NCBI GenBank assembly: GCA_049322615.1
Contig: JBMORX010000003.1
Span: 3,328-67,327, forward strand
DNA from: Patescibacteria group bacterium
GTDB taxonomy: Bacteria; Patescibacteriota; Microgenomatia; CAYGWK01
DNA: 64,000 bases
Reading direction: 5' to 3'
Translations under genes and position numbers: made by a program
Notes under the pieces: model-generated
Seen by the model: the letters and a program-made list of their open reading frames with translations, nothing else
Databases searched by the model: none
Told to the model about the DNA's origin: nothing
In this document: positions 1-52,555 of the stretch, one piece after another
Layout of the letters: every line of letters starts with the position of its first letter
Numbering within the stretch: position 1 is the stretch's first letter

Positions 1-203
1 GAATAACAATTCCAAATTCTTTGTCAATAGGGACAATTGGTCGAAGCCCTGATTGGGGGAATTCCAGACTTACATCCAAGGAGTATCTCACCCCGCCCCA
101 TTGATTAAACCGATATCCCAACTCTTCTTTGATCACCGGACCAAAAATAAAAAGCGAAATTAAAATCCCCCCAATGATTAGAAAACTGCTAATTTTTCCC
201 ATC
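1..203 (-). CDS. Partial CDS (N-terminus only, runs off the window edge): small membrane protein with one TM helix
   Basis: The reverse-strand ATG at 201-203 opens a frame with no stop before position 1. It translates as MGKISSFLIIGGILISLFIFGPVIKEELGYRFNQWGG..., with a hydrophobic N-terminal helix. It is not in the ORF track because it is truncated by the window edge. Confidence 0.35.
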
Positions 204-212
204 GTCCCTGGA

Positions 213-242
213 GAGGTTTAACCTGGTACCAGGTTAAACCTC
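213..242. terminator. Perfect 30-bp palindrome GAGGTTTAACCTGGTACCAGGTTAAACCTC downstream of tsaB; likely a transcription terminator hairpin
   Basis: I read it directly. The reverse complement of the left 14 nt equals the right 14 nt, around a GGTACC centre. It lies 20 nt beyond the tsaB stop on the minus strand. Confidence 0.5.
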
Positions 243-262
243 ATTTTGAATGGAAATGTCTA

Positions 263-562
263 TCATTTATATTTCGGTTCAACTAGTTTACCTATCTTTT
301 GATTGTTAACCGAAACTTTCAGTGCCCAGGCTAAAGCATTGGCGACCGCCACTCCAACCCTAAGTCCCGTAAAAGAACCCGGTCCTGTTTCCACTTTAAT
401 TTCGGTTATGTCTTTTAAGGTTTTTTTATTTTTTTTAAGAATTTCTGAAATTAAAGTGAGAACTTGTTGCGATTTATCAACCCCAGTTGGTTTTTCCAAA
501 CGATCTTTATCTAACCCAACCACTGTTTTCCTGTTATCTGAAGTATCAATATATAGCCTCAT
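263..562 (-). CDS. tsaB: tRNA threonylcarbamoyladenosine biosynthesis protein TsaB (YeaZ-like), short form
   Basis: The N-terminus reads MRLYIDTS...VGL and there is a GPGSFTGLRVGVAVANALAWAL motif, matching the YeaZ/TsaB N-terminal Kae1-like fold. It sits directly downstream of tsaE. Confidence 0.7.
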   Translation of the reverse strand: MRLYIDTSDNRKTVVGLDKDRLEKPTGVDKSQQVLTLISEILKKNKKTLKDITEIKVETGPGSFTGLRVGVAVANALAWALKVSVNNQKIGKLVEPKYK

Positions 563-592
563 TTGTTTAAATGATTTAAATCATTTTAACAA
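560..592 (-). promoter_or_regulatory. Copy 1 of an identical 33-nt element (CATTTGTTTAAATGATTTAAATCATTTTAACAA) that includes the tsaB start codon and the 18-bp palindrome AAATGATTTAAATCATTT; promoter/operator candidate
   Basis: It is identical to 2163-2195 and 2641-2672. In gene orientation it reads TTGTTA-N17-TAAACA-AATG, which resembles a -35/-10 pair abutting the ATG (a leaderless start). Confidence 0.55.
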
Positions 593-1022
593 CCCTGATT
601 TTCCTGCTATCTTCTTTTAGATATTGAAAATAAATATCGATCCGCTCTTTTGGTAGGATTTTTTTAATTTTCTCCGCCCACTCAATAACAACAATATTGG
701 CAGGATTACTTAAAATTTCCTCAAGTCCTAAACCCTTTGCATCTCTTTGGCTTTCCACCCGATATAAATCTACGTGGTAAAATCTTCGCCCTTCGCCCTT
801 CTTTCTTTGCACTCGATATTCCCGTATCATCACAAATGTGGGCGAAATAACCCTTTTCTTAATACCTAAACCCTTAAGAACACCCTGAACAAAAGTGGTT
901 TTACCACTCCCCAACTCGCCATAAAGACAAATTATTGCTCTTTCTTTTAAATTATTTGCAATTTTTTCGCCCAGTTTTTGAGTTTGGCGGGCGCTTTTGG
1001 TAAGTATTTCCATATTCCCCAC
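576..1022 (-). CDS. tsaE: tRNA threonylcarbamoyladenosine biosynthesis ATPase TsaE (YjeE)
   Basis: It has the P-loop GELGSGKTTFVQG and the SPTF motif, and is about 150 aa. Confidence 0.8.
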   Translation of the reverse strand: MGNMEILTKSARQTQKLGEKIANNLKERAIICLYGELGSGKTTFVQGVLKGLGIKKRVISPTFVMIREYRVQRKKGEGRRFYHVDLYRVESQRDAKGLGLEEILSNPANIVVIEWAEKIKKILPKERIDIYFQYLKEDSRKIRVVKMI

Positions 1023-14543: not shown

Positions 14544-14689
14544 ATATTTGGCGACTTTTCTCTAATTTTATCTCTTAGCATTCATCCTGTGCCTACACCC
14601 CAGGGGTGTTTTACGCTTGCACCTGCGGATAGTGACATTTTTTCTACTTTTTACCAGAACCATCCTCCTGTCCTTACCTTTCGCCTTTT

Positions 14690-14711
14690 CATCCCGATTT
14701 AATCGGGGATG
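14690..14711. terminator. Hairpin CATCCCGAT-TTAA-ATCGGGGATG downstream of secA; member of a CCCGATTTAATCGGG hairpin family
   Basis: The inverted repeat was read directly. The same core is found at 28970-28988 and 49379-49395. Confidence 0.5.
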
Positions 14712-14754
14712 GCTCAAAGAGCAGACATAGGAGGACCTCGCTTCCGCTTTCTGA

Positions 14755-46093: not shown

Positions 46094-46643
46094 TAATCAT
46101 TACCTTAGAGGCAGAAAGAATTCCCATTAAAAATGGATCTCGACGCTCCCGTCTAAAAGCAAATTCTTCATTCGTCATTACCGTGTAATTTATTTCCTGG
46201 TCCCTTTTGGTCTCCTCGGCTTTAATTAGGGCCGCCAACTCTGGTAAAACGATTTCTCCGACCACCAAAATGTCAACTTCATTTTTCTGGCGGGGGATTC
46301 TTTTAACAAATTTTCCAGAAAAGGCAACAAAGATGATTTTGCCAATTTTTTGTCTATTTTTAAGAATTTCCTGCCCCAGTCCGCAAGTTTTGCTAACCAA
46401 GTTCAACAGTTCGTTATAAAACAAATAATCTTTTCTAAACCAGTAATAAAGCCGATTGCCTCTCGGTTCCTTTTTCACCATTCCACAATTCTCCATATGC
46501 TCAAGTTCTCTCCTTACGGCATTTATTTCCTCATCGGTTCGACGGACCAATTCTCGAACATGATACATCTCCCTCGGATCAGAAAGAAAAGTTTCCAAAA
46601 GTTTTACCCTAACCTTTGAAATCAAAAGATCACGAAGTTCCAT
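46065..46643 (-). CDS. Winged-helix (ArsR-like) regulator fused to a minimal nucleotidyltransferase-like domain
   Basis: It has an N-terminal wHTH (VRVKLLETFLSDPREMYHVRELVRRTD...) and a C-terminal GS...EVD pattern (AFSGKFVKRIPRQKNEVDILVVG) like minimal nucleotidyltransferases (MNTs). Confidence 0.45.
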   Translation of the reverse strand: MELRDLLISKVRVKLLETFLSDPREMYHVRELVRRTDEEINAVRRELEHMENCGMVKKEPRGNRLYYWFRKDYLFYNELLNLVSKTCGLGQEILKNRQKIGKIIFVAFSGKFVKRIPRQKNEVDILVVGEIVLPELAALIKAEETKRDQEINYTVMTNEEFAFRRERRDPFLMGILSASKVMIIGEEVELVS

Positions 46644-46755
46644 ACTTGCAACACAGAAAGCACAGAAACCCTATTTTTCTTCCGTGCTTCTGATATAATT
46701 CAGTGTTCTCTGTGTTTACGGGGCAGGTATTCAAAACACAAAGGACACAGATGAT

Positions 46756-47937
46756 TTAATAACTCACCTCGCTTCCTGTGGGCAGAATTTCAATCCAAAT
46801 TTGTCCCCGATTAAGTTTTATTTCTTTACCTTTCGTGTCTTTAAAAACCATTCTCTCTTTGCGGTCTTTTTTATTCCAAGTCCCCTCTAAAACTTGACCA
46901 TCCTGAAAGATAAGCACTTTACCCGAACCTTTTGTGCCATATAGAAGATGAAGATTCCCCTCATAGCCATCGTTGGCTCTTGACTCTTTCATAAAAGCAA
47001 GGACTACTACCTTTCCTCGAATCTCGCTCTCATCATTTCTATCTTTCTGGGCTAACCCGCCATTAATTCTTTTATAATCATTTGCTGTCTGGTCGTATTC
47101 CCATTTAACATCATAATCCGAATATCCTTTCCAGAAAGAAAATGTCGGACTTTTTGTCCCCCTTTCGCCTTCTTTGCTATCTTCTTTAAATTGCCATTTA
47201 AGAAAATTTTTATCCCAAGGAACACTTGCTTCGTCGACATTCGTCAAATTTCTTTTTTCCGCCACGATAAAAAGCTTATCGCTCGTCGAATACATCGTGT
47301 GTTCCGTCGCCACCGGATGGTCAAGCCGCTCGTAATCTCGCCAAAAAGTAGGAAAACCAATTGAAAATTGATTTAAATCATTTCCTTTTTTAAGCCAACC
47401 ATAGTCGCCAATTTGCCCTAAAGCATTGGCTCTCCCGGGGGTATTGGCACCACCAACATGAGCATAGAGGGGAAAATCTCCATATTCTGAAGCAAAATCA
47501 AGAAAATAAGTTCGAGCCGAGCGGACTGGACCGATTTGAACATCAAAAGCCGAGACACCACAGTAAAAAATTGCTAAAAATCGGGTAATTCCTCCTTCGG
47601 AGACTGCCTCATAGACAATATCGGCTCGAGAAACCCCTGATTGAGGACGAGAGTCTTGATGATTTTCAATCATGACGCTCAATGGTCGGCGCTTACTCCA
47701 GATATCTTTTTCTGCTTTGGTATATTTTTGACCATTTAGAGGACATTCTTCGGTCTTAGGAGCCGATAAATCAACCCTAAATTTACTCTCTCCTGAAGGT
47801 AAGGGAGAAACTATCAAAGGACCGGGAACTTTAAGGTAAGAAAAAGTGGCATAAGAGATACCAGTCGTTAAAAGATAAAGACCAAGTCCGGCTAAAGTTA
47901 AAAGTATTATTTTTTTCTTTTCTCTAATTTTTTCCAT
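46756..47937 (-). CDS. DUF3048 (YerB-like) putative lipoprotein
   Basis: It has an N-terminal TM/signal segment and motifs such as IENHQDSRPQSG, ADIVYE and EGGITRFLAIF. Confidence 0.55.
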   Translation of the reverse strand: MEKIREKKKIILLTLAGLGLYLLTTGISYATFSYLKVPGPLIVSPLPSGESKFRVDLSAPKTEECPLNGQKYTKAEKDIWSKRRPLSVMIENHQDSRPQSGVSRADIVYEAVSEGGITRFLAIFYCGVSAFDVQIGPVRSARTYFLDFASEYGDFPLYAHVGGANTPGRANALGQIGDYGWLKKGNDLNQFSIGFPTFWRDYERLDHPVATEHTMYSTSDKLFIVAEKRNLTNVDEASVPWDKNFLKWQFKEDSKEGERGTKSPTFSFWKGYSDYDVKWEYDQTANDYKRINGGLAQKDRNDESEIRGKVVVLAFMKESRANDGYEGNLHLLYGTKGSGKVLIFQDGQVLEGTWNKKDRKERMVFKDTKGKEIKLNRGQIWIEILPTGSEVSY

Positions 47938-47967
47938 ATTTCTGCGTCTCCACGGTATTTCTGCGCT

Positions 47968-48435
47968 TCAGCGCTTTTGGGCTTTTTCTATCGCCTCTTT
48001 TTCCTCTTTAGAAAACTCGTATCCAACAGGCTTGCCGTTTTTGACTGGTTTGGCATAAATTCTTGTCTGGTCCCGGCTGTGCAAACTTGAAATAATAATC
48101 CCGTTATCGTGCCCATCCAAAACTGCTAAAGTGAAACTTTGACTTCCGCCGGTATCAGAAAATGGATTAAATCTGACTAAACCTGTCTTTTGAACATGAA
48201 ACCTTCCATCTTTTTCTATTTCGTCGGCTCTTTTTATAATTCCATCAATTCTTTTTTCGGTAATCTTTTCTTCTTTTAAAATTTTTTCCAGAATTGAGCC
48301 TAAATCCTCTTTAGTTGTCCCTGTCGTCAGTCTCCGGTAATGGAAAACTGCCCGGAAAAGAAAAAAAGACAAAGCCCCAAGCCAAACAAAAATTGCTCCT
48401 AACAAAATTAAGGACAACTGTTGATTGAGTAACAT
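47968..48435 (-). CDS. Hypothetical membrane-anchored protein (DUF4446-like)
   Basis: It has an N-terminal TM helix. The family assignment is tentative. Confidence 0.4.
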   Translation of the reverse strand: MLLNQQLSLILLGAIFVWLGALSFFLFRAVFHYRRLTTGTTKEDLGSILEKILKEEKITEKRIDGIIKRADEIEKDGRFHVQKTGLVRFNPFSDTGGSQSFTLAVLDGHDNGIIISSLHSRDQTRIYAKPVKNGKPVGYEFSKEEKEAIEKAQKR

Positions 48436-48493
48436 TTTACCACATTATTTTATCCCGGTTCCACACCTTGTGTCAACCCCGTATAATGCTTGC

Positions 48494-48598
48494 TTGCTCC
48501 CGTGGTCTACGTCCACGCGTCGCAAGAGCGCATATACGGGGCAAGCCCCTCAAATAAAATGAAGCCTCCCCGCCCATGGAAGGGCGGGGTTTCTCTTT
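48494..48598 (+). ncRNA. Candidate small structured RNA with a TATAAT -10 box (48482-48487) and a strong intrinsic terminator (CCCCGCCC-AUGGAA-GGGCGGGG + UUUCUCUUU)
   Basis: The segment is GC-rich relative to the genome. A 5' helix pairs GCUUGCUCCCGU with ACGGGGCAAGC. The terminator stem is at 48568-48589 and the U-tract at 48590-48598. No ORF is present. Confidence 0.45.
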
Positions 48599-48607
48599 CG
48601 AGAAAGG

Positions 48608-48624
48608 TCCCGACTAAGTCGGGA
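48608..48624. other. Hairpin TCCCGAC-TAA-GTCGGGA (variant of the CCCGATTTAATCGGG family)
   Basis: It is a 7-bp inverted repeat that I read directly. Confidence 0.4.
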
Positions 48625-48697
48625 AGGCTGCGATTCTTGCTTCATTCATCTCCGCCCACAGAGGGGCAGAGTATTCTGAAGCGCGAAATAAAATCTC

Positions 48698-48731
48698 TTA
48701 CCGAAATTAGACACGTGTACAATTTTGTCAA
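48698..48731. repeat. Sixth, half-degenerate copy of the 34-bp palindromic element (CACGTG-TACA-ATTTTGTCAA; left arm decayed)
   Basis: The right arm and the CACGTG core are intact. The left arm matches only the AAAT part. Confidence 0.45.
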
Positions 48732-48766
48732 CAGGGGTTTTGAAAAAACTTGATGCCTGTGGTATT

Positions 48767-48809
48767 ATTCGGATACATTCGGATAATTTTCATTCGGATG
48801 AATTCGGAT
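48767..48809 (+). repeat. Four direct repeats of ATTCGGAT phased at 10, 15 and 10 bp (iteron-like or tandem regulator-binding sites)
   Basis: The copies are at 48767, 48777, 48792 and 48802, so spacing is about one helical turn. Confidence 0.5.
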
Positions 48810-48869
48810 GTCCAGAAAAACTCGCCAGGAAAAAATTATTGCCGACCTCCGCCGAAGACTGGAAGCAAC

Positions 48870-49015
48870 CAGAAATAGAAGTGAGGGTGAGAAGTGGGAC
48901 GTGGGTCGAGAAGTGAGGGTGAGTCGTGAGGAATTAAAAAACTCCCCGCCCCAATTTCCCATCTCTCAACCCACTTCTCACTTCCCATCCTCACCCTCAA
49001 TCTCTACTTCTTACA
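48870..49015. repeat. Long imperfect inverted repeat built from GAAGTGAGGGTGAG/GTGGG modules (left arm 48870-48925, right arm 48945-49015)
   Basis: A direct repeat AGAAGTGAGGGTGAG occurs at 48876 and 48912. The complement modules CTCACCCTCA, CACTTCTCACTTCCC and CCCACTTCTC lie in the right arm. The ORFs through this region are probably spurious. Confidence 0.45.
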
Positions 49016-49235
49016 TTAAAAAAGACTTGACAAAAACCTTTCTCTTGACAATACTTGCAATTAGCCTTGAGCTTGTGCTATACTTCCTAACTAGGATAGG
49101 CAAGATTTAAAAACTTTACTCTGCCCGACTAGAATTATAATCGTAGCTTAGGCAATGGCGAAAAAGGAGGCTTGCCTCTCCGAAGCTCGCCTACGCCAAA
49201 GGCTACGGCGAGCGAAGGGAGGTGAGAAAGATTTA

Positions 49236-49379
49236 TGGCAACCATGTACTGTGTTAAGTGCCGCGCCAAGAAAGACGTCGCCAACCCACAGAGAGTGACG
49301 ATGAAAAATGGCAAGCCGGCAATGAAAGCCTCTTGTCCAGATTGTGGCACAACCATGTTCAAGATTGGTGCCGCGTAAT
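49236..49379 (+). CDS. Small zinc-ribbon protein (47 aa, CxxC...CxxC)
   Basis: It reads MATMYCVKCRAKKDVANPQRVTMKNGKPAMKASCPDCGTTMFKIGAA. A GGAGG SD lies 9 nt upstream and a hairpin follows. It is not in the ORF track because it is under 60 aa. Confidence 0.5.
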
Positions 49380-49619: not shown

Positions 49620-50363
49620 TCAGCTAATAAATTTTAACCCAAGCATTATGCCGATTCCGGCAAGCAAACCGAGGAGTTGGACGAGGGATTTTTGGGGTCT
49701 TGTTTCTTTATGAAGCTCGGGAATTAAATCGGTTGAGGCAATATAAATAAATCCACCGGCAGTAAAAGGAATAAGACTTTCAGAAAACCCAGAAATTCTT
49801 GGGCCAAAACTTAAGACAAAGATTGTTCCCAAAATCGCCATTAGGGATGAGAGAAAATTAAAGATTATGGCTTTTTTCTTGCTAAATCCTCCATGGATTA
49901 AAACACCAAAATCCCCAATCTCTTGAGGAATTTCATGAAAGATAACCGCAATCGAAGTTGCTATTCCCAAGGAAAGACTGACAACAAAAGTTGCCCCAAT
50001 AATCACTCCATCAATAAAATTATGGAGTCCATCACCTATCAAATTCATAAAAACCACGGGGTGGGGATGATCTTTTGAGGTTGGAATATGACAATGGCGC
50101 CAGGCAATAAATTTTTCCAAAATAAAAAATGTTAAGATTCCTACCAGAATCGCTAGATTTGTTTCCAGATTTAATCCTTGGTTTTCCGCAACTTCTGGCA
50201 AAAGATGAATAAAAGTATCTCCTAAAAGTCCACCGGCGGCAAAAGAAACTAAAATTAAAAGCGCTTTTTCCGTTCTTTTTTCTCCAACCACTATACTCAA
50301 AACCCCAACCAAAGAAATTAAACTAACAATCACAACTGATGTGATTGAGTAAAACCAAACCAT
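49620..50363 (-). CDS. ZIP family metal (zinc) transporter
   Basis: It has eight TM helices and the HEIPQEIGDFGVL motif of ZupT-like ZIP proteins. Confidence 0.8.
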   Translation of the reverse strand: MVWFYSITSVVIVSLISLVGVLSIVVGEKRTEKALLILVSFAAGGLLGDTFIHLLPEVAENQGLNLETNLAILVGILTFFILEKFIAWRHCHIPTSKDHPHPVVFMNLIGDGLHNFIDGVIIGATFVVSLSLGIATSIAVIFHEIPQEIGDFGVLIHGGFSKKKAIIFNFLSSLMAILGTIFVLSFGPRISGFSESLIPFTAGGFIYIASTDLIPELHKETRPQKSLVQLLGLLAGIGIMLGLKFIS

Positions 50364-50365
50364 TT

Positions 50366-50797
50366 TTAAACTTGCTCCTCTTCGACAGGTGGCGCAGATG
50401 CTGGCGGCGTCTCGGTTGTCGGCGGTTGAGTCGACGGTACTCTGGTTGGTTGGGTTGGTTCCGTTGGTGTTCCGGTTGGTGGCGGTGCCCCAGGAAGCGG
50501 CGTTTCCGGAATTGGGGGAACTTGAGTCTCTTCAACTGAAGTCTGAGGTGTTACCTGGGTTGGCGTCTGCCAGGCAGGCATTGTCCTCATGTGCTGATCA
50601 ACTTCGGCTGCTATCTCCTCGCGAGTTTTTCCCGGAGACTGTTGCATTTGAAAATTAATCATTCCTTCTCGGACTTCTTCTTTTGATTTAAGATTACCGC
50701 TTGGGTCAGTACAATATTTACAATAAGGATTCTCTACTCTTGCACCACCATGATCGGCATCAGTTGCCATCGGCATCCCGCATGATTGACAATTCAT
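50366..50797 (-). CDS. Zinc-ribbon domain protein with a Pro/Thr-rich C-terminal tail
   Basis: The N-terminal ribbon is MNCQSCGMPM...NPYCKYC, followed by a low-complexity P/T/Q tail. It is co-oriented and adjacent to the ZIP transporter gene. Confidence 0.6.
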   Translation of the reverse strand: MNCQSCGMPMATDADHGGARVENPYCKYCTDPSGNLKSKEEVREGMINFQMQQSPGKTREEIAAEVDQHMRTMPAWQTPTQVTPQTSVEETQVPPIPETPLPGAPPPTGTPTEPTQPTRVPSTQPPTTETPPASAPPVEEEQV

Positions 50798-50960
50798 ATT
50801 ATCTTGTCACCTCCTTTCGTCTCAGTGCCTTCTAGAGTAAGAAATTCTGTTTCCGAATGCACCCCCTAATCACAGAAGGCACTGAATTTACCTAAGAGCA
50901 CTGAAATCTCTGTGCTCTCAGTGATTCCATCCTCCCATTCGGTTTTTTCTAAAACTAGTA
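50798..50960 (-). promoter_or_regulatory. Structured leader of the zinc-ribbon/ZIP operon: extended -10 promoter (TGTTATACT), two hairpins and mutually exclusive pairings, strong SD
   Basis: A 12-bp inverted repeat TCAGTGCCTTCT/AGAAGGCACTGA lies at 50822-50833 and 50873-50884. A 7-bp AGAGCAC/GTGCTCT hairpin lies at 50887-50910. An outer pairing CCGAATG/CATTCGG encloses the first arm, and the SD AGGAGGTGA precedes the ATG. Confidence 0.45.
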
Positions 50961-51013
50961 TAACATTTTTTCAACTTTCCTGTTTAGGTCCCTTCGCTAA
51001 CGCTCAGGGTAAA

Positions 51014-52555
51014 CTAATCCGTACCCTTCGGACGGTATTGTAAGGCTTCAGCAATGTGGTTTGGGCTTATTTCTTTTTCACCAGCCAAATCAGCAATAGT
51101 TCGAGAAACTTTAATAACCCTGAAGAAACTTCTGGCGGTTAAATTCATCTGAATAGTTGCCTGACGAAGTAAAGTCAAACATTCTGAAGACAGCCTACAA
51201 AAACGCTTAACATCCTTTGTTGTCATTTCTCCATTACAGATAATTTTTGTTCCCTTGAATCTTTTAGTCTGTAAATCTCTCGCTCTTTGGACCCGCCTTT
51301 TTATTATTTTTGAGGTTTCTGCGTTTTCCACCGATTTCTGCGTTTCTGCGGTTGCAAGCTTATCTACCTTCACTGCCGGCACCTCCAAATGTAAATCAAT
51401 TCTGTCTATTATTGGTCCAGAAATTCTTTTTTTGTAACGCTGGACCTGACCTGGAAGACAAGTGCAGGGCTTGACCGGATCGCCTAAATATCCACAGGGG
51501 CAAGGGTTTGAGGCGGCGACCATAATAAATTTTGCCGGAAAGGTTAAAGTCCCGGCTGCCCGAGAAACAGTCACAATCCCATCTTCCATCGGCTGCCTCA
51601 GAGCCTCTAAAACATGACGGGGAAATTCGGGAAATTCGTCCAAGAACAAAACACCCCGATGAGCCAGAGAAATTTCTCCAGGGGCAGGATGGCTTCCTCC
51701 ACCAATTAAGCCAATTCTTGAAGTCGTATGATGAGGTGAACGAAAAGGTCGATATTTCACAACCGACTCGCCTGGGGGCAAATTTCCGGTAACTGAATAA
51801 ATTTTTGTCACTTCAAATGCTTCCTCTTCGGTTAAATCAGGCAAAATCCCAGGCAGAGCCCGGGCTAACATCGTTTTCCCCGCTCCTGGTGGACCAATCA
51901 TCACAACATTATGTCCTCCGGAAGCAGCAATTTCCAAAGCCCGTTTAACATGCTCCTGTCCCCGAACATCAGCCATATCAAATTCAACCAAAACATTGGA
52001 AGTGATTTTTGAAAAAGGAGTATGGGGAATTGGCTTTATTTCCTCTCCGCCTTGAAGATGATAGAAAAGTTGTAAAAGGGAGGAGACTGGATAAATTTTA
52101 AGACCTTTGATAACCGAGGCTTCCCTGCTATTTATTTGCGGCAAAAAAATTCTTTTAAACTTTTTTTCTTTTGCCAAAATTGCCATCGCCAAAACACCGT
52201 TGGTATGGCGGAGAGAGCCGTCAAGGGAGAGTTCACCTAAAACTAGAGCATCTTTTAAATCCGCTTTTAACTGCCCGGAGGCAACCAAGATTCCTAAAGC
52301 AATTGGCAAATCATAAGAAGGACCAACTTTTGGTAAATCCGCTGGAGCAAGGTTGACAGTGATACGGCGCGGCGGAAAATCTGCCCCAGAATTTTTCAAA
52401 GCCGAACGAACTCTCTCCTTGGCTTCCTCAACGGCTTTATCTGGAAGTCCGACGATGGTAAAAGAAGGCAGACCTTGGGAGGCAATATCAACTTCAACCT
52501 CAATTGGAACAGAATCAAGTCCTACGGTCGCGCCAGAAAAAACCCGGGCAAGCAT
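51014..52555 (-). CDS. comM: YifB/ComM family Mg-chelatase-like AAA+ ATPase
   Basis: It has an N-terminal Lon-like domain, Walker A (GPPGAGKTM) and sensor motifs. Its first 26 codons are duplicated at 59408-59484 and partly at 60756-60783. Confidence 0.85.
   Translation of the reverse strand: MLARVFSGATVGLDSVPIEVEVDIASQGLPSFTIVGLPDKAVEEAKERVRSALKNSGADFPPRRITVNLAPADLPKVGPSYDLPIALGILVASGQLKADLKDALVLGELSLDGSLRHTNGVLAMAILAKEKKFKRIFLPQINSREASVIKGLKIYPVSSLLQLFYHLQGGEEIKPIPHTPFSKITSNVLVEFDMADVRGQEHVKRALEIAASGGHNVVMIGPPGAGKTMLARALPGILPDLTEEEAFEVTKIYSVTGNLPPGESVVKYRPFRSPHHTTSRIGLIGGGSHPAPGEISLAHRGVLFLDEFPEFPRHVLEALRQPMEDGIVTVSRAAGTLTFPAKFIMVAASNPCPCGYLGDPVKPCTCLPGQVQRYKKRISGPIIDRIDLHLEVPAVKVDKLATAETQKSVENAETSKIIKRRVQRARDLQTKRFKGTKIICNGEMTTKDVKRFCRLSSECLTLLRQATIQMNLTARSFFRVIKVSRTIADLAGEKEISPNHIAEALQYRPKGTD

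Follow-up and report, generated by a model that had tools for sequence, protein, structure and literature searches.

The zinc-ribbon/ZIP operon and its leader

The window, i.e., the whole 64,000-nucleotide stretch of Patescibacteria DNA that was analysed, carries an operon for a Zn_ribbon_2 protein (ZR) and a ZIP-family metal transporter, which is preceded by a long 5′ leader. Reading of the reverse complement of positions 50760-51060 places both the operon and the leader on the minus strand. The two gene assignments made in the original prediction, a zinc-ribbon protein and a ZIP transporter, were confirmed by Pfam (PF12674 and PF02535). For comparison, relatives were gathered by a genome scan with the ZIP protein, by a metagenome scan and a protein search with the Zn-ribbon domain, and by contig look-ups of the closest relatives. 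This gave 125 loci in all (L numbers below), including 24 ZR loci and 80 ZIP loci. Within the Patescibacteria, the source of the window is placed with Microgenomates/Shapirobacteria-like lineages. The features of the operon and of its leader, which we term W-type, are given here in the order of transcription.

51014..52555, minus strand: comM/YifB-type Mg-chelatase-like ATPase gene, upstream of the leader (Pfam; synteny kept in relatives)
50981..50986, minus strand: −35-like hexamer TAAACA (consensus scan; 18-nt spacing to the −10)
50957..50965, minus strand: extended −10, TGTTATACT (consensus scan)
50798..50956, minus strand: W-type 5′ leader, about 160 nt between −10 and ATG (MFE; orthologs at L114 940-1110 and L115 638-810)
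50936..50942, minus strand: 5′ arm of the outer helix, CCGAAUG (inverted repeat I6, 7/7)
50909..50926, minus strand: segment A, box 1, the tandem hexamer box CACUGAGAGCACAGA (CACWGA-N3-CACWGA pattern)
50892..50921, minus strand: hairpin 1 (A:B), 10 bp, CUGAGAGCAC/GUGCUCUUAG, with arms at 50912-50921 and 50892-50901 (repeat finder, fold)
50868..50886, minus strand: segment C, box 2, inverted (repeat finder and box pattern)
50874-50885, minus strand: 12-mer UCAGUGCCUUCU inside segment C (perfect inverted repeat with D)
50861..50868, minus strand: G-run UAGGGGGU, a mimic of the Shine-Dalgarno (SD) sequence (paired with AUUUCUUA in both the window MFE and the consensus fold)
50853..50859, minus strand: 3′ arm of the outer helix, CAUUCGG (inverted repeat, 7/7)
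50838..50845, minus strand: pyrimidine-rich, anti-SD-like tract AUUUCUUA (the L114 equivalent ACUUCU pairs with the SD GGAGGU in the MFE)
50822..50833, minus strand: segment D, AGAAGGCACUGA, a degenerate box 3 and perfect complement of the 12-mer in C (inverted repeat I2, 12/12)
50807..50815, minus strand: SD, AGGAGGUGA (direct reading)
50797, minus strand: ATG of the Zn_ribbon_2 gene (direct reading)
50366..50797, minus strand: Zn_ribbon_2 gene (PF12674, E 3.5e-11; 143 aa with a Pro/Thr-rich tail)
49620..50363, minus strand: ZIP-family metal transporter gene (PF02535, E 3.2e-51; 247 aa)

From 5′ to 3′, the leader runs from TGTTATACT through CCGAAUG, a purine tract (GGGAGGAUGG), A (AAUCACUGAGAGCACAGA), B (UUCAGUGCUCUUAG), C (UUCAGUGCCUUCUGUGAUU), the G-run (UAGGGGGU), CAUUCGG, a pyrimidine tract (AUUUCUUACUCU), D (AGAAGGCACUGAG) and the SD (AGGAGGUGA) to the ATG. 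The elements named in the original prediction, namely the CCGAAUG/CAUUCGG pair, the GAGAGCAC hairpin, the perfect 12-mer pair and the strong SD, are all present on the minus strand, and the extended −10 promoter that it proposed was also recovered at 50957-50965 by the consensus scan. Furthermore, the repeat finder revealed two additional pairings, A:C (18 nt, 78% complementary) and B:D (7 nt). Perfect 12-nt inverted repeats with a loop of at most 100 nt are not unique in the window, which contains 5 of them compared with a mean of 1.5 in dinucleotide shuffles; that the one in the leader is real is shown by its presence in the orthologs too.

The terminator scan of the leader detected no intrinsic terminator or U-tract after C:D. 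A leader peptide was rejected as a candidate, as the AUG...UGA frame, 6 codons long, is cut short in L115 and lacks a preceding SD. A Zur box at the −10 (AAATGTTATA) was likewise rejected, since its likeness is limited to a half-site seen by eye and its palindromic partner is conserved in no variant.

Two observations concern the neighbouring genes. Directly 3′ of the ZIP gene and convergent with it, positions 49235-49378 (plus strand) encode a DUF5679 protein of 47 aa with two CxxC pairs (zinc-ribbon-like), and therefore two small zinc-ribbon proteins adjoin the zinc importer at this locus; the same DUF5679/ZIP arrangement occurs in L113. At the other side of the operon, the 3′ end of comM (50987-51022, minus strand) is unlike that of most relatives. 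It carries an extra segment of ~35 nt, GGTACGGATTAGTTTACCCTGAGCGTTAGCGAAGGG, which lies 5′ of the promoter, contains a small hairpin and brings the ORF to an early end. A segment resembling this insert, GTTTACCCTGA..GAAGGGACCTAGACA, is present in L090.

Folding, conservation and distribution of the leader

The 161-nt leader has an MFE of −46.9 kcal/mol (z = −4.3), which was matched by none of 200 shuffles, and it is conserved in two orthologous contigs, so that the claim of a structured leader holds. In the predicted fold, A:B and an extended C:D each form a local hairpin. The duplex energy in the leader is −23.5 kcal/mol for C:D and −14.8 kcal/mol for A:C, and the combination of A:B and C:D is preferred over A:C by more than 20 kcal/mol. 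For the outer helix, the predicted equilibrium probability is about 0, and forcing it would cost +8.4 kcal/mol in the window, +6.1 kcal/mol in L114 and +11.7 kcal/mol in L115. The outer helix and the 12-mer helix had been proposed to be mutually exclusive. However, the two share no nucleotides and cross each other, which corresponds to a pseudoknot topology.

The C:D core is predicted with a probability of about 1 in the window and in L115, and of 0.21 in L114. The mean P(unpaired) of the SD amounts to 0.79, 0.27 and 0.45 in the window, L114 and L115, respectively; in the window, the AUG reaches 0.95 and the stable hairpins sit 5′ of the SD. Anti-SD:SD pairing appears in the MFE of L114 only, and the window MFE pairs the anti-SD-like tract with the G-run. 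Because the predicted folds and the SD accessibility differ between the orthologs, no single regulatory conformation is established. A two-state scheme can nonetheless be drawn from these models, albeit without covariation support, in which C:D together with G-run:anti-SD would leave the SD open and C:G-run together with anti-SD:SD would close it. With SD-like, anti-SD-like and SD tracts all present, control of translation in cis by the leader is plausible.

The 108-nt core of the leader is 85-92% identical among the window, L114 and L115. This is far above the 69-70% identity at the third codon positions of ZR, and the core is therefore under purifying selection and not junk. The conserved stretches include unpaired ones. 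In the outer helix, the orthologs show three substitutions, all of which give G.U pairs. In hairpin A:B, one pair is compensatory, two changes affect one side only and lead to or from G.U (including one from a wobble to a Watson-Crick pair), and one change gives a mismatch. Throughout the stems of the leader, substitutions to sense-strand G.U are commoner than those to A.C. In both L114 and L115, the 12-mer helix has one C.A mismatch without compensation, and the perfect 12-mer pairing that had been proposed as the switch is thus broken in both W orthologs. The covariation analysis, which comprises three sequences only, gave 96.7% of cells paired and only 1 pair in which both partners had changed, which was equalled by 172 of 500 column shuffles. 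Among the three W leaders, covariation is therefore not above that of the shuffles.

The close relatives, whose ZR proteins are 79-88% identical, all share the promoter AAATGTTATACT and the SD. This promoter, or AAAGTT(T)ATACT in L090 and L091, precedes every variant of the leader, even in L091 with its different upstream context. What lies between promoter and SD is polymorphic among lineages, and three types of leader were observed. A short unstructured leader of 26-43 nt occurs in L081, L090, L112 and L116; that of L081 contains the D-like sequence CACAGAAGCACTGGAG. The H-type leader of ~100 nt contains an 80-nt hairpin (CCCGCCUAAUC...GAUUUUAGGCGGG) and is found in L001, L082-L088, L113, L121 and L124, and in a diverged form in L091. 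The W-type leader of ~160 nt is confined, among the 125 loci, to the window, L114 and L115, the latter two being metagenomic contigs. In a neighbour-joining tree of ZR, the three W contigs group together, and L081 with its short leader is nested in the H clade. The complementary 12-mers had been expected in orthologous leaders; in at least 10 orthologous operons with the same promoter and SD, the W leader as a whole is absent. A blastn-short search of the window and the first 80 loci returned no other copy of the leader, apart from a promoter match in L001, and a pattern scan of viral contigs gave 0 matches. The contigs with the comM homologs P0030 and P0038 contain no ZR operon, and thus no additional W leaders were obtained from them.

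The leader slot is accordingly plastic in evolution, as it holds no structure, an 80-nt covarying hairpin or a 125-nt box module, depending on the lineage. The locus thus offers a natural experiment on the contribution of structured leaders.

These data bear on the possibility that the leader is a riboswitch responding to a ligand (a metal, specifically Zn2+) or an RNA thermometer, either of which would shift the mRNA between SD-open and SD-closed states. The conservation of the leader including its unpaired stretches would fit such a device, as would the SD mimic, anti-SD and SD tracts, with the SD hidden in the L114 MFE and free in the window MFE, and the zinc-uptake context of the genes. 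In addition, the phrase 'zinc riboswitch' or its variants had no match among about 8 million papers searched, so such a switch would be new; the matches for riboswitch together with zupT concern the ZTP/pfl riboswitch. Nevertheless, we regard this explanation as improbable, and a zinc-specific sensor as less probable still. The 12-mer complementarity is lost, the occupancy of the outer helix is about zero, covariation remains at the level of shuffles and Rfam offers no match. Furthermore, the W leader is limited to three contigs of one lineage, and sister lineages use the same promoter with short unstructured leaders. A thermometer is disfavoured by the open SD in the window MFE (P(unpaired) 0.79); unlike in ROSE or fourU elements, both SD and AUG are mostly unpaired in the window. 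Moreover, buffering keeps free Zn2+ in the cytosol at levels far below those at which RNA typically binds metals.

With gathering thresholds, an Rfam scan of the whole window returned one tRNA only. A cmscan of 50600-51200 at E ≤ 10 yielded only chance-level matches to SNORA5, ctRNA_p42d and SNORD15; the czcD (NiCo) and yybP-ykoY covariance models, against which the original prediction suggested a comparison, gave no match in this interval at that threshold. E-value scans of 46500-49300 and of L001 2400-2700 gave nothing relevant.

A second copy, the box motif and interpretation of the module

The window was also searched with two models, an nhmmer profile of the W leader and R1, a covariance model of the W leader core. 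Both detect a paralogous copy of the module, referred to as copy 2.

46647..46752, plus strand: paralogous copy of the module (nhmmer E 3e-4 for 46650-46724; R1 match over the full length, 24 bits, E 0.0017)
48808-49110, plus strand: small membrane-protein gene (100-aa ORF), between the two copies

Copy 2 occupies the whole 112-nt spacer that separates a DUF3048 gene from the gene of a 192-aa wHTH protein; as the minus strand encodes both genes, copy 2 is antisense to them. The wHTH protein is 100% identical to the one with the NCBI locus tag ACOZBZ_01545. It folds as two hairpins. L125, which stems from the sample that also yielded L115, contains an ortholog of copy 2 that is 91% identical (96% over the first 104 columns), whereas the flanking genes are 63-64% identical at their third codon positions. 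Since leader and copy 2 are both conserved, the W lineage possesses two selected, inverted paralogs. In H-type relatives copy 2 is absent and the spacer measures 18 nt. All five copies keep the potential for A:B, A:C and C:D, with duplex energies of −14.5 to −17.7 kcal/mol for A:C and −17.4 to −23.5 kcal/mol for C:D. Between leader and copy 2, hairpin 1 shows two compensatory pairs in a by-eye reading of fold and alignment, i.e., not as a count by a tool. The unpaired blocks common to both paralogs are AATTCAGTG, TCTGTG-TTA-GGGG (in RNA, AAUUCAGUG and UCUGUG-UUA-GGGG) and G-AUUC. They are shared despite the opposite strands of the two copies relative to their genes, and would thus be no less compatible with recognition of double-stranded DNA than with a role in RNA.

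The 4.2-kb block between the two copies contains ZR, ZIP, DUF5679, the small membrane-protein gene, DUF4446 and DUF3048. Further repeats were noticed within it. Four tandem ATTCGGAT repeats (48763-48806, plus strand) lie between an extended −10, TGTGGTATTAT, and the ATG of the small membrane-protein gene; their CATTCGG heptamer is identical to the 3′ arm of the outer helix of the ZR leader, and they are absent from the homologous spacer of L113. Within the variable middle of the 100-aa ORF, positions 48883-48992 (plus strand) form a near-perfect hairpin of ~110 nt, which includes one perfect 12-nt inverted repeat out of the five in the window and has only spurious miRNA-precursor matches in Rfam. 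Finally, the 370-nt spacer between DUF4446 and the small membrane-protein gene includes a GC-rich, hairpin-dense stretch at 48550-48680 (plus strand; CCCCGCCC..GGGCGGGG, GTCCCGACTAAGTCGGGA). A search of this stretch for Rfam matches at E ≤ 5 found none, and its assignment to RNase P or another known RNA is therefore unsupported.

The CACWGA-N3-CACWGA box occurs 5 times in the 64-kb window against 0.34 expected, a number reached by none of 100 shuffles. All five boxes are inside the two copies, three of them in copy 2, and each copy has the layout → ← →, the third box of the leader being degenerate. Elsewhere among the 125 loci, the motif was found only in L114, L115 and L125. The complementarity of A with C and of C with D follows from the orientation of box 2, which is inverted relative to boxes 1 and 3. 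Alternative pairing is hence a by-product of the box architecture and is, on its own, no evidence for a ligand switch. The original prediction had taken alternative pairing next to the SD as a hallmark of riboswitches and RNA thermometers; the SD-like, anti-SD-like and SD tracts are indeed there, but the pairings follow from the boxes. The locus may serve as a warning that alternative pairings generated by repeats should not be read as riboswitch hallmarks.

An array of DNA operators is one possible meaning of such boxes. Spaced about one helical turn apart, they would be sites downstream of the promoter at which a transcription factor blocks transcription of ZR/ZIP, the wHTH protein beside copy 2 or a metalloregulator being the candidates. 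The boxes are strongly over-represented and confined to the two copies, and the same blocks are kept in both despite their opposite orientation to local transcription. In addition, copy 2 abuts the start of the wHTH gene, whose homologs are named ArsR or MarR family by one source, and the short leader of L081 keeps one box between promoter and SD. On the other hand, the wHTH gene is widespread in genomes without boxes, where its spacer measures 18 nt, and the boxes of the leader lie at +30 to +140 downstream of the −10 and not over the promoter. The compensatory changes in hairpin 1 between the paralogs, which were read by eye, and the preference of the leader stems for sense-strand G.U over A.C point to selection on pairing. 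We consider operators an unlikely alternative.

Equally, the module could be a selfish or neutral palindromic insertion without a role in the operon, of the REP, REPIN, BOX or MITE kind or derived from an inverted duplication by template switching. Both sites of the module are empty or differently filled in close relatives, and such presence/absence, together with the occurrence in either orientation and the modular boxes, is what an insertion would leave. C can be viewed as an inverted copy of the D-like native leader segment seen in L081, and a Y1 transposase with REP-like hairpins adjoins comM in L121 and L123. However, both copies are far more conserved than the flanking synonymous sites, and the window contains only two copies in 64 kb, both local. 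By comparison with the short leaders, the module ends at about 50950 and about 50834. Direct reading against these leaders revealed no terminal inverted repeat (TIR) or target-site duplication (TSD) at the ends, the inverted repeats being internal, which rules out a MITE. A tblastn search with the Y1_Tnp protein of L121 found no Y1 transposase in the 64-kb window. An insertion devoid of any role thus seems rather unlikely as well.

The explanation that we tentatively prefer, with a confidence that stays short of even, is that the leader is a lineage-specific, selected palindromic module whose effect in cis is on the structure of the mRNA, or which serves as a platform for binding. It starts from what was observed directly, i.e., the anatomy, the orthologs, the paralog, the selection and the polymorphism of the leader slot. 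An element of ~125 nt would have been inserted or built up between promoter and SD in one small clade of Microgenomates-type Patescibacteria. It consists of three 15-nt boxes (→ ← →) plus segment B, which is complementary to box 1, a layout from which the RNA should therefore fold as the A:B and C:D hairpins. The alternative pairings A:C, B:D and C with the G-run are inevitable from this design, which also includes SD-like and anti-SD-like tracts. As a 5′-UTR structure, the leader would act post-transcriptionally, on mRNA stability or processing and on the access of ribosomes, the latter because the G-run, the anti-SD-like tract and the SD would compete with one another. The boxes may also offer a platform for a factor that recognises them.

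Most likely, the W leader is not an aptamer for a small molecule or for zinc, and as a sensor it is only a candidate and unproven. Nothing that we found supports the metal-responsive, possibly zinc-sensing RNA that had been proposed, given its narrow range, the lost 12-mer, the lack of covariation and the antisense paralog. An antisense paralog in an unrelated spacer would be unexpected for a zinc aptamer. Whereas riboswitches are recognised by an aptamer shared across diverse organisms and by a sense orientation upstream of one gene class, the W module occurs in three contigs of one lineage, and its copy 2 is antisense between the DUF3048 and wHTH genes. The NiCo/czcD (RF02683) and yybP-ykoY (RF00080) riboswitches resemble the W leader in being structured leaders of metal-transport operons with SD-competing purine/pyrimidine tracts. 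In contrast to these, the W leader has a narrow phylogenetic range and no covariation support, precedes an importer rather than an exporter, and has a paralog outside the context of metal genes and in antisense. Attenuator leaders such as trp and pyrBI (1:2/3:4 versus 2:3) share with it an arrangement of four segments, which pair as A:B and C:D or as A:C. Unlike these, the W leader has no conserved leader peptide, as the short AUG frame is not conserved, and no terminator-like site with a U-tract, and its A:C pairing is much disfavoured.

Modular palindromic repeats are known from bacterial intergenic regions, such as REP/BIME and the REPIN doublets of proteobacteria, BOX of Streptococcus pneumoniae, ERIC and the Correia elements. 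When co-transcribed with their neighbours, these repeats are known to alter mRNA stability, processing or translation. REP/BOX-type repeats are similar to the W module in that short alternating boxes give adjacent hairpins over about 100-150 nt, and in that they are intergenic, occur in either orientation and are present or absent between close relatives. The W module differs from them in having only two copies, 4 kb apart, in 64 kb, in having no Y1/RAYT gene in the window and no TIR or TSD, and in that both copies are under purifying selection, one of them placed exactly between the conserved promoter and SD of a zinc-uptake operon. We assign the W element to the broad class of modular palindromic intergenic/leader elements, as a member not described before.

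A far bolder version would make the module a new type of cis-regulatory RNA switch for the import of zinc in Patescibacteria. Box 2 would pair alternately with boxes 1 and 3, coupled to the G-run, anti-SD and SD, with a metal ion or a box-binding protein (for example, the co-encoded Zn-ribbon protein) as the trigger; the H-type hairpin would then be an analogous, independent solution at the same site. We consider this highly improbable. Literature searches for cis-acting elements of metal uptake in Patescibacteria found nothing, and if the preferred palindromic module does modulate ZIP expression, it would be among the first such elements described in these ultrasmall bacteria.

The H-type hairpin of sister lineages

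The H-type leader is built around an 80-nt hairpin with conserved internal loops, in which 7 pairs are changed on both sides, a result reached by none of 500 shuffles. It was located in the following loci.

L001 2504-2585; L082; L084-L088: H-type hairpin
L091 1408-1488; L093 745-826; L095 1903-1984: H-type hairpin
L060 851-932; L113 (two copies): H-type hairpin
L121 2492-2573; L124 1111-1192: H-type hairpin

The hairpin adjoins Zn_ribbon_2 genes, either 5′ of ZR→ZIP operons or 3′ of ZIP→ZR operons. The second copy in L113 is inverted and lies upstream of the promoter of a gene homologous to the small membrane-protein gene of the window (48808-49110). No match to the H-type was found in Rfam. 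The hairpin may be a repeat element, or a site to which the Zn-ribbon protein binds.

Homology between the W and H leaders was rejected, as their local alignment score equals the shuffle mean and R2, the covariance model of the H-type, has no match on the W leader. Both lie in the same slot of the operon, flanked by a common promoter and SD, both have extra copies elsewhere, including inverted ones, and both end a few nucleotides 5′ of the SD, which stays uncovered. In contrast to the W module, the H-type is a single long hairpin with internal loops, a wider distribution and strong covariation, and it may be the more promising RNA motif of the two.

A match of R2 (30.8 bits, E 6e-6) is also present in the window at 14658-14741 (plus strand); it lies in a spacer bordered by secA and a 257-aa gene and is antisense to these two genes. 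The genome of the window therefore has an H-like hairpin elsewhere, despite its W-type ZR leader. In the H-type relatives L121 and L123, the Y1 (IS200/RAYT-type) transposase gene that adjoins comM spans positions 174-848 (minus strand) and is flanked on both sides (about 125-160 and 865-895) by the hairpin GGTTCCACCTTTGTCAAGGTGGAACC, an arrangement that is REP/RAYT-like.
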